A stretch of DNA of 64,000 nucleotides. Origin: Octopus vulgaris (lineage: Eukaryota). The notes beneath the pieces were generated by a model. It worked only from the letters and a program-made list of their open reading frames with translations, searched no databases and had not been told where the DNA came from. The stretch lies in the NCBI GenBank assembly GCA_951406725.2, contig OX597835.1, positions 2,542,001 through 2,606,000 of the forward strand. Reading direction: 5' to 3'. Below are positions 6,098 to 64,000 of the stretch, in pieces. The position numbers were made by a program, and so were the translations under genes. Position 1 is the first letter of the stretch; each line of letters begins with the position of its first letter.

Positions 6098-9000
6098 ATG
6101 AAAAGCATCAGTGTCCTATTGTTTTGTGTATCCATTTCATACACCTTCTCCGATAAACAAAGTAAGTATAATAAGAAATATCTTTTATTTTATAGTCATT
6201 AGGTATGTAGTGGGAGAAAAGAGGGAGAGAAGAAAAATGAATAACCTTACCCCAGCGGTACTTCGTATGGACCCCATTTATATGTAATTACAACTTTCAA
6301 AGAAATAACTCTACACATAGGTCAAATATTCAGAATTACGATTCTTCAACATAATATAAAACATTTCATTAACAATATGACTGACGAATCTTTTATATAC
6401 AAACCAAGAAGAATTCTAGTGGTGTGCTCTGATCTGTTACTTCTATATAAGATCAGAAGGTAAGCACGGCCGAAATGCCGCTAAGCATATTGTCTGTCGA
6501 GCTAAGAATTCCGTCAGTTCGCCACCGCCTTTTGGACTCATAATTATTAAAATCATTAAAGAATAGAATCAGCAGGAGCTGTATATAATGTCTCGTGTAT
6601 TGTTTGTTTGTTTCTTTTCTTTTCTTCTCTTTCCTTTTTAATTGCTCCATTGGTTTTTATCTCCTTTATGCATTAGAAATGTCCATCACTACAGTGATGG
6701 GCCATATTAACAGTCTGAGAGAGGAAATATGAGTTCCAGTCGTAATGATCCTGCACCTTTTGTGTATTTCTACACAAAACTTTGGTAAATTGATATCTAA
6801 TTCTCCCGTGTGTATTTCAATGTCTCTTTCAGACGTCTCTCCCGTCCATCAACAGAAAGGAGCTAATGTAATTTTGAGTGAAATGGCTCGTAGGTAAGAA
6901 CTACATATCTACATCTCTTATATATGTAATTAATTTAGTATTGCCCAGGTGGTAAGCTGGCACATCATTAGCACTCTGGATAAAACACTTTGTGGCACTA
7001 ATTCCGGCTTTAAGTTTTGGGTTGAAATTTCGCCGATGTTGACTGCATCTTCCATTATTTCTGGGTCGCTGAAATAAATGCTAGCTGGGAGCAAGTGTCC
7101 GTGTAACAGAATAGCAGCCTCCATCAACGTTTCAGGCCCTTGTGTCTATGATAGAAAAGTTATAAAATATTGGCAAATTCAAATTCTGAGACTGTTTCTA
7201 AATTATAGTTTCTGCGTAACAGAAAATCTGAAAGGGGAAGATATGAAGCGAGATTTATCGAAAAGAAAATTACTTTCATGAGTAAAAATCAGATAATATT
7301 TTTTTTTAAAATATTTGCCTACGAAATTTTTGTCATCACTTTCATCTTTAAACTTTGTAAGTAAACACTTACGGAAAAGGAATGAACCGTGATGGAATTC
7401 CATGAAGCTGATATCCTGGGAGGGAAGGACTAGGTGTAGGAATTACAGTTGGGCTTGAGGTTTGGACACAACTAGAATGATGAGAAGGAGAAAGATGAAT
7501 AATATGAGAACGCCTGGGTGGAAGCGAGATTCAGAGAGCAGACGCCATTATAGGTGCAGTAGCGTTAGAAAAGACGGAGAGAGGAAACAACATGCTGGTG
7601 GGCAATACGTGAAGTACTCTCTCTCTGGATGCGGTCTAAGACAGTTGTGTGTATAGGAACAGCATCATGCCAGATGTGAACGCAACACTCCATTGTGGCC
7701 CGTCCTGAGCCCTGAAATGTATCATAATTTAATATTTAATTCCATCCTCCCGTGTTCTGTATTCAAATCCTGTTATGGCACCAACTTTGTGTTTTATTCA
7801 TTAGTTAGTCTGGTGAGGGAGAGCAAACTGAAACTGCGTGGTCACTGTCAAACTTTTCCATGTAAAAGTTTATATTTGTTTGTATGTGTATGTATATATG
7901 TGTGTGTGTGTGTTTTTGTGTTCGTACGTTGGTGTGTACGGATGAATGGACGAATGAAAGAAGTGAAACTCTTTTCTAATAACTGATGCCTATTTTCTAC
8001 ACTACACTCGACCAACCAAAGCCTTTTAAGTGAACTTGGAAAACGGAAACTGAAAATAAGTTCGTTATATATATATATGTATATATATATATATATATAT
8101 ATATATATATATATATATATATATATATATATATATATATAGAACGAAACGATCAACGTCGCCCTTTTCAAGCCTAGCCAGGCTCATGGGCCCGGTGTCC
8201 CGGTTTCTTTCGGTTGAGTTCCCTCTCCCCAGCTGGACGGGACGCTAGCCCATCCCAGCGTTACTCAAGAAACAGGAAGAGAGAGAAAGAAAGAGAGAGA
8301 GAGAGAGAGAGAGAGAGAGAGAGAGAGAGAGAGAGAGAGAGAGAAGAAAGTACAACAAGGGCCGCCACCTCACCCTGCCTGAAATTTGTGGACCATTTAT
8401 GTGTTTTCGCTCAATAAACACACAACGCCTGGTCTGGGAATCGAAACCACGATCCTCCGACCGCGAGTCCGCTGCCCTAACCAGTAGGCCATTGCGCCTC
8501 CACGCACACACACATGCACACACATCTGTATATGTATGTATGTATGTATGTATGTATGTTTGTATGTATGTATGTATGTATGTATGTATGTATGTATGTA
8601 TGGATGTATGTATGTTTGTATGTATGTATGTATGTATGTATGAATGGATGTATGTATGTATGTATGTATGTATGTATGTATGTAGGTGTGTATGGACGTG
8701 TGTGTGTGTGTGTGTGTTTGTCCTTCACTACGACTTCCACGTTGATGTTAAAGATCCAATGCCGTATCATCGTGAACCGCCAGTTCTCTCCTCGTTTCTC
8801 AACAACCTAATGAATGATATCTGTTCTCCATACTCACAACACGAGTGTAATGTCAGTATAATATTACAGTCAGCATTATACCGTTATCCATCACGTGAAT
8901 CGTATCTTGTGAACTACAAACTCAGCTTGCATGCGTGTGTGTATGTTTGTGTGTGTGTGTCCTTGTGTATGTGTGTGTGCATGCGCGCCCCTGTGCGTGT

Positions 9001-63000: not shown

Positions 63001-64000
63001 TTGTGGAGTTATTAGCTAACTCCTCCTACATCGATTTATCGATTTTGATGACACTTAACATGTTAGTAGAACTCATGTCTGGAAACCTCATGACATACTC
63101 AGAATATTGAAAACATCGATAATAGGGCCCCTAGAAGGGATCCTTTTTATATATCTAATTTATCCAGTACAACCCTTAGACAAATAAATATTATTTTCCT
63201 AAAAAATAGATCCACTCATTTTGGTTAGTGACTTATTCACGAATATACCAACACTAGCGCCCCTGAGGGTAATATTCTCTGGGAACGAACAAAGATCCTT
63301 TTCAGAGTTATTTACTTTGAAATATTAATATCTCATATCAGATTAGCCTGTTTTTTTGGTAACATATTCTTTGTAAGCCTAGTACTTATCCTATCGGTTG
63401 TTTTGCCGAACTGGTAAGTTACATGGACTTAAACACACCGGCATCGGTTTCAAGTGATAGCGGGGAGACAAACACAGATACAGAATCATATACATGCTTA
63501 AATATATATATATATATGTATATATATATATATATATATGTACGGCGGGCATCTTTCAGTTTCTGTCTACGAAATCTGCTCACAAGGCTTTGGTCGGCCC
63601 TAGTCAATAGTAGCAATCACCTGACCAAGGTGCCACGCAGTGCGACTGAACCCGGAACCATTTGGTTGGTAAGAAAGCTACTTACTTCACAGCCACTCTT
63701 GCGTCTAAAAACACAACCCCTCTCACTGTCTACATCTACTTATGAAATTCTGGATATATATTTATATACTTTATCCTTAAAAAAATTCGAGAAAATACAC
63801 TAGGTGAGAGTTAAAAAACAGAAAAATGACTTGTGGATTCTTGTTTCGGTTGTGCATGTTGTGAGTTCAAGTCCCGTCGATAAATTAAACACCAGTATCA
63901 TCTAATCCCAGCTCTAAATATTCTTTGCTTTCTCCCTTGATGAGACACCTTAATTTAATAATATTTTCTATTTCCTATCATATTCTGTATTTACAGTGAC
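60022..64000 (+). CDS. Knottin prepropeptide gene 5, 3' truncated by window end (exons 60022-60085, 60752-60812, 63997->64000)
   Basis: Exon [22 protein letters not shown]; exon [21 protein letters not shown](S). The window ends exactly at ctgtatttacag|TGAC, the conserved exon C acceptor. The mature peptide is not visible. Confidence 0.8.

Follow-up and report, generated by a model that had tools for sequence, protein, structure and literature searches.

A large diversifying family of eight-cysteine precursors in Octopus, with a GPI-signal-like tail and a likely origin from CCWamide/agatoxin-like peptides

Introduction

Three small exons recur within a 64,000-nucleotide stretch of the Octopus vulgaris genome (G000:C22:2542001-2606000; genome size 2.8 Gb), referred to here as the window. 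The question raised by this locus is what these exons encode, where they came from and whether their products would be released or held at the cell surface. The current annotation of the locus consists of one chimeric model, CAI9738754.1, which fuses exon pieces of several family genes, contains no signal peptide and hides the family.

Five genes with a common exon structure

By self-comparison of the window, exons A and B were found in five copies each, and a six-frame scan revealed four eight-cysteine exons, two per strand (Table 1). In all five genes (g1 to g5) exon A comprised 64 coding nt from ATG to GTAAGT and exon B 61 nt from TCAG to GTAAGA. The acceptor of exon C was ACAG in each gene, and the introns were in phase 1 and then phase 2, with GT-AG at all junctions. 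A first-pass annotation had described five three-exon genes with constant exon A and B lengths, constant phases and canonical splice sites, and the exact models confirmed this. The predicted junctions also agreed with independent RefSeq models of O. bimaculoides. Exon C of g5 was intact past the window end (L010:497 onward).

Table 1. Features of the family genes and of the inverted tail relics in the window
Gene	Feature	Position	Strand	Remarks
g1	exon A	6098..6161	+	signal-peptide-like; 64 coding nt; phase-1 donor
g1	exon B	6833..6893	+	propeptide; 61 nt; phase-2 donor
g1	inverted tail relic, intron 2	8840-8930	-	
g1	exon C (coding)	11120..11342	+	KR; Cys domain 11148-11249; 30-aa spacer + hydrophobic tail; stop
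g2	exon A	19813..19876	-	
g2	exon B	19082..19142	-	
g2	inverted tail relic, intron 2	17225-17315	+	
g2	exon C	14848..15055	-	Cys domain 14929-15027; 26-aa tail
g3	exon A	30530..30593	+	
g3	exon B	31692..31752	+	
g3	exon C	33643..33868	+	Cys domain 33665-33760; 35-aa tail
g4	exon A	49802..49865	-	
g4	exon B	49075..49135	-	
g4	inverted tail relic, intron 2	47190-47280	+	
g4	exon C	44864..45074	-	Cys domain 44945-45046; 26-aa tail
g5	exon A	60022..60085	+	
g5	exon B	60752..60812	+	
g5	inverted tail relic, intron 2	61920-62010	-	
g5	exon C	63997..64000	+	first 4 nt only in window

The precursors of the four complete genes were 115, 110, 116 and 111 aa long. A signal-like start of about 18 aa (Met-Lys-hydrophobic) was recognised by eye in all listed copies of exon A except one partial copy, and the sequence of exon A was identical among g1, g2, g4 and g5. 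The cysteines were spaced 4-10-0-5-1-5-1 in g1 and g4, 4-10-0-4-1-5-1 in g2 and 4-8-0-4-1-6-1 in g3, which contained a ninth cysteine ahead of the KR. The KR was encoded inside exon C in g1, g2, g4 and g5; in g3 and most genes of a cluster near 7.6 Mb, exon B ended with Lys and two bases of an Arg codon. The eight-cysteine framework occurred four times in the window and in 0 of 100 hexamer-shuffled copies, which ruled out a chance pattern. The earlier reading of the four complete genes as C-C-CC-CxC-CxC precursors with a KR was confirmed.

Exon B of g3 has an internal GTAAGT after its first 35 nt (window 31727-31732), as do eight other copies; splicing from this alternative donor is conceivable and would be out of frame. 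A pyrimidine tract and AG directly 5' of the ATG (window about 6070-6097) indicate a predicted upstream exon, either non-coding or extending the coding region. N-terminal extensions occurred in two O. bimaculoides models. Gene g3 was covered by reads of runs X2 and X3, which behaved like DNA runs. Of six runs presumed to be RNA, X4 and X8 left exons B and C of g3 uncovered, with no splice joint among the rows listed, and X7, X13, X14 and X18 did not cover the exons of a gene in the cluster near 7.6 Mb; these six runs carry no information on expression.

Two other elements were observed in the window. An AT-rich element with long minus-strand frames was duplicated at 367-2732 and 54109-56525 with 94% identity. 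It had no Pfam match and resembles a decayed retroelement. An AT-rich segment at 1-369 had both direct and inverted matches to 23548-24032, suggestive of a large palindrome.

About 40 mature exons in several clusters

The genome contained 37 matches to exon A: 35 on C22, a single gene on C4 and, on C18, a short match to upstream sequence only. Those on C22 were clustered near 2.46-2.61, 3.27-3.39, 7.56-7.72 and 15.9-16.0 Mb. Profile matches numbered 51, in 40 genomic stretches and the window, and six further gap stretches yielded no new gene. Forty-two of the matches were intact eight-cysteine exons with 38 distinct domains; these counts are lower bounds, the DNA between the clusters being covered in part. 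The family reported as five genes is real, and its size was corrected to about 40 mature exons. The framework was of the window type in 36 of the 42 intact exons and shifted to C-C-CxCC-C-CxC in the other six (C-x4-C-x7/8-CxCC-x4-C-x6-CxC; L016:6497, L017:6418, L019:5267, L020:5449, L037:9606 and L012:720). The copies at L033 and L034 contained 10-11 cysteines. A lone divergent member without the C-terminal tail described below was located on C4 (L015:5778; G000:C4:141454778) and is possibly closest to an ancestral soluble form.

Two or three intact terminal exons were found behind a single A/B pair in four genes (L020, L039/L040, L033/L034 and L013), an arrangement that suggests alternative last exons. 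In O. bimaculoides the isoforms P0006 and P0010 of one locus have a common A/B pair and different mature exons. Their O. vulgaris counterparts are separate genes, and the O. bimaculoides annotation may therefore be a merge.

A block of about 23.5 kb with two genes was duplicated almost exactly (G000:C22:2524590-2538309 and window 6098-19876). The Cys domains of the two copies were identical at 102 of 102 and 99 of 99 nt and the intron at 448 of 450 positions; the block may have been duplicated very recently, or it may be a haplotype that the assembly left uncollapsed. Together with the nine partial or broken profile matches, this block could be read as a sign that the family is for the most part silent debris of duplication or an artefact of the assembly. 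That reading is nevertheless very improbable in view of the 42 intact exons with invariant cysteines and canonical splice sites, an omega above 1, three cross-species orthologue pairs and the RefSeq models in O. bimaculoides.

Relatives and age of the family

Against 1.84 billion representatives the profile matched six proteins, namely five O. bimaculoides RefSeq entries named "uncharacterized" and the O. vulgaris model mentioned above. With the full-length profile three further O. bimaculoides proteins were obtained (8 of 1201 candidates), and no family protein from outside Octopus was among the 1201 candidates. The claim of a recently expanded, lineage-specific family was supported. A word-based sequence search with exon C of g1 gave no match, and the ESM Atlas search gave only leads below 0.9, plus irrelevant MutS helix matches for P0002.

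The O. bimaculoides RefSeq members (LOC128250513, -14, -16, -17, -36 and -41) have the same splice pattern and tail as the O. vulgaris genes and carry no assigned function. RefSeq models usually rest on RNA-seq. No description of this or another large octopus knottin family was found in the literature searched, including searches with the six LOC numbers and three family motifs; subscription papers, which include the main salivary-gland proteomes, were outside its scope.

The last exons were compared in a FastTree tree, built from a short alignment and with local supports, in which three O. bimaculoides proteins each paired with a single O. vulgaris gene at a support of 0.97-1.0. The Cys domains of these pairs were identical at 26/32, 25/34 and 26/33 positions. 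One pair included g3, whose exon C was identical to that of P0006 at 55 of 74 positions, and g3 is likely the orthologue of this protein. The remaining window genes and most 7.6-Mb genes formed groups without any of the eight known O. bimaculoides members. From these pairings and species-only groups it follows that the family is probably older than the species split, local expansions having come later.

Selection on the cysteine domain

With a single-omega codon model and 31 sequences, omega of the Cys domain was 1.60, which differed from omega = 1 (2dL 10.8, p = 0.001), and it rose to 2.89 once the Cys columns were removed; gene conversion and alignment error can inflate such values. Omega was 1.01 for the signal exon and 1.76 for the propeptide (p = 0.16). 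In all 26 non-identical pairs, which are not independent of one another, dN exceeded dS.

The DNA of the Cys domain was only 59-82% identical (mean 68%) in codon alignments of 15 pairs from six distinct genes of the window's cluster, while the 450 intron bases 5' of it were 93-98% identical among such pairs and the tail DNA 90-100% among the genes of this cluster. Synonymous divergence in the Cys domain (pooled 0.19) was also higher than intron divergence. Gene conversion may have kept the flanks alike, or the domain may have a higher mutation rate.

At six of the eight Cys positions one codon was used in at least 27 of the 31 sequences. Position-specific use of Cys codons is known from conotoxins. 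Taken together, the codon analysis shows what appears to be conotoxin-like diversifying selection on the Cys domain, and the family would point to an arms race of an unnamed kind in octopus, be it in venom, immunity or recognition.

Comparison with knottin structures

The spacing of the cysteines is compatible with an inhibitor cystine knot (ICK). The g3 domain was modelled with AlphaFold2 from 30 sequences at a pLDDT of 75.8 and a pTM of 0.43, and the model contained a C-terminal beta-hairpin (strands 22-26 and 31-35). Alignment against 48,161 chains with VIA-align gave seven rows (Z 2.1-2.7, rmsd 1.5-3.0, 28-32 aligned), six spider toxins and one sea-anemone peptide, all of them small and Cys-rich. 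Foldseek listed 20 rows with E values of 2.6-9.9, of which 18 were small Cys-rich venom or defence peptides, among them tachystatin A. A profile search of PDB sequences gave eight rows, all of venom-peptide type, with purotoxin-1 as the best (E 0.033). No family member reached a Pfam cut-off. The structural and sequence neighbours are thus consistent with a knottin at levels below significance, and the predicted knottin fold is weakly supported. As to the earlier assignment to agatoxin/ICK-type knottins, the eight-cysteine framework speaks for it, but the fold match is weak; likewise, the proposed structure check returned toxin-like neighbours but no Foldseek E value below 2.6.

A further proposal, with which the weak tachystatin row agrees, is that of tachystatin-like antimicrobial or immune-recognition knottins, anchored on or shed from skin, gut or haemocytes. 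Positive selection on the Cys domain would suit this function, as would its net charge, which was +1 to +8 in 37 of the 42 exons. The other five domains were neutral or acidic (0 to -2), and for anchored peptides this proposal overlaps with the explanation that we prefer. As an account of its own we regard it as improbable.

The C-terminal segment

In 35 of the 42 intact exons the last cysteine was followed by a polar spacer, a hydrophobic core and the stop, together 26-35 residues (criterion: at least 24 aa and a best 11-residue Kyte-Doolittle mean of at least 2.0). The core was uncharged and there was no cytosolic extension. This tail was present in seven of the eight O. bimaculoides proteins and was modelled as a helix at low confidence (AlphaFold2, whole exon, pLDDT 61). 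The first-pass annotation had noted a tail. The segment is indeed present, and its conserved hydrophobic character speaks for anchoring in the membrane and against a free peptide.

GPI-anchored proteins combine an N-terminal signal peptide with a C-terminal GPI signal, in which three small residues at the attachment site are followed by a spacer of about seven residues and the hydrophobic core; the available text of the source also lists exceptions to the spacer and site rules (PMC5054108). By our own rule a small-residue attachment triplet was found in 20 of the 35 tails. At sites of the N-N-G type the spacer to the core was shorter than about seven residues; among the tails in general it was short or ran into the core. 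Most members are likely to be membrane-tethered because 35 of the 42 mature exons end in a GPI-signal-like spacer and hydrophobic tail, and the tail itself is likely a GPI-anchor-signal-like membrane anchor.

Purifying selection on the tail was not detected (omega 1.11, p = 0.62); since omega of the signal exon was also about 1, this test has little power. Hydrophobicity of the tail was not significantly better kept than in a neutral simulation (P 0.10 and 0.14), in a set preselected for open tails. By eye, indels in the DNA alignment of the tail were mostly in frame or at the end of the core, with one frameshift inside it. All three tail-less copies that were checked continue directly into 3' sequence which in tailed copies follows only some hundred bases later. 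This points to loss of a segment as the probable origin of the tail-less copies; for the C4 copy it gives no direction. A transposon origin of the tail was rejected, because all matches of a DNA search with the tail included were to family loci (a lower bound). Intron 2 of g1, g2, g4 and g5 contained an inverted relic of the tail-coding segment (Table 1).

The tail also bears on the proposal that the genes encode free, secreted venom or defence knottins acting on ion channels of prey or predators; in this view the tail is drifting read-through or a C-terminal propeptide removed by cleavage. In favour of it are the omega of about 1 for the tail, the seven tail-less copies among 42 and an Arg that occupies position 7 of the spacer in 12 of the 25 tails aligned. 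The near-invariant signal exon, the hypervariable mature exon with position-specific Cys codons at six of eight positions, the strong diversifying selection and the channel toxins among the structural neighbours fit a venom as well. However, in the window's cluster no basic site was found between the last cysteine and the tail, except for a Lys at the core start in g2 and its duplicate, and the tail occurs in both Octopus species, in O. vulgaris in 35 of the 42 copies. In addition, the words "knot" and "agatoxin" were absent from the accessible part of a salivary-gland proteome, which lists its toxin families without knottins (PMC7693380). Five short family motifs from signal and tail were also absent from the accessible part of its supplement, which may hold no sequences. 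Free venom peptides appear less likely to us than the anchored family and are the strongest of the rivals.

Kinship with CCWamide

Spiralian CCWamides have been united with the arthropod agatoxin-like peptides (ALPs) by Thiel et al. 2021 (PMC8557429). According to the available text of that paper, the group is marked by three exons, intron phases 1 and 2, eight cysteines and an amidated aromatic end; the signal lies in the first coding exon and the mature peptide in the last, and a basic codon belonging to the cleavage site is interrupted by the last intron. CCWamide is stated to have no known receptor or function, and in spiders ALP/CCWamide was co-opted as a toxin, which would also suit a venom in octopus (accessible parts of PMC8557429 and PMC13311285).

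The octopus family has in common with CCWamide/ALP the succession of signal, propeptide, basic site and C-C-CC-CxC-CxC domain as well as three coding exons in phase 1 and then 2. A nemertean CCWamide begins C-x4-C-x10-CC (PMC8557429, available text), the start also seen in g1, g2 and g4. An aromatic residue between Cys6 and Cys7, as in CCWamide/ALP, was seen by eye in 19 of 30 aligned members, and the basic codon was split at the last intron in g3 and most 7.6-Mb genes but not in g1, g2, g4 and g5. In other respects the two differ. CCWamide is one conserved gene, whereas the octopus family consists of about 40 hypervariable copies; the C1-C2 spacing is 4 in the family and 6 in CCWamide; and a hydrophobic tail of 26-35 aa stands in place of the amidated aromatic end, which was found in none of the 42 family exons.

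A motif search with a control of 0 found the canonical CCWamide last exon once in the genome, on C2 (G000:C2:126342294). The last two exons of this gene were mapped at L041 (G000:C2:126340794-126343823). The encoded peptide ends Trp-Gly-Gly, and the last exon is identical to that of O. sinensis P0011. The canonical CCWamide passed the Pfam Toxin_9 cut-off (23.5 against 21.3 bits), below which the family members remained. As the canonical gene lies elsewhere, the family is not the octopus CCWamide itself. Three marks of the group are present and the amidated end is missing, and the family is therefore treated as likely divergent CCWamide paralogues and not as members. The family profile matched the canonical CCWamide with an hhalign probability of only 16%, so that the two may have converged on a widespread arrangement of cysteines; all in all, derivation from a CCWamide/agatoxin-like neuropeptide is likely. 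The first-pass annotation recognised no named family. All protein relatives found are uncharacterised, but the closest named relative is the CCWamide/agatoxin-like peptide, as far as the accessible text of PMC8557429 goes.

Discussion

At a probability of roughly 0.45, our preferred explanation is an expanded Octopus family, likely derived from CCWamide/ALP, whose predicted knot domains are held at the surface by a GPI-signal-like tail while their loops diversify. Guided by the signal that exon A encodes, the precursor would enter the secretory pathway. A convertase would cut at the KR before the first cysteine, and the eight cysteines would form a four-disulfide knot. The tail would then be exchanged for a GPI lipid or stay in the membrane, and the variable loops would bind a changing external partner such as a microbe, a prey or gamete surface, a channel or a receptor. 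Cleavage at a basic residue of the spacer may release some copies, and the seven tail-less copies of 42 would be soluble.

We put forward tentatively the more specific picture of natural GPI-tethered knottins that arose from a neuropeptide copy, with about 40 members, conotoxin-like diversification and some swaps of alternative last exons. If the tail is a GPI signal, the family would consist of knottins that are tethered to the membrane by nature, as lynx1-type prototoxins are, and would offer a handle on CCWamide/ALP as well. With approximately 38 distinct, positively selected eight-cysteine domains, it provides peptide pharmacology with a ready panel.

Among known systems, the spider four-disulfide ICK toxins (purotoxin-1, 2kgu; U4- and mu-agatoxins; agelenin; PF02819) have the Cys framework in common with the octopus family and are its best sequence and structure neighbours. 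They are free venom peptides, and all their matches to the octopus sequences are below significance. The available part of PMC11288129 deals with arthropod knottins only.

With the conotoxin O-superfamily the octopus family shares a conserved signal exon, a hypervariable mature exon, fixed Cys codons and dN > dS. Conotoxins of this superfamily have six cysteines, whereas the octopus family has eight and a hydrophobic tail, and no sequence link between the two was found. Ly6/lynx1 GPI-anchored "prototoxins" and engineered tethered toxins resemble the octopus family in that a signal peptide, a toxin-like disulfide domain and a GPI-type C-terminal tail occur together. Ly6/lynx1 proteins have a conserved three-finger fold, whereas the octopus family has a predicted knottin domain that appears to be under diversifying selection.
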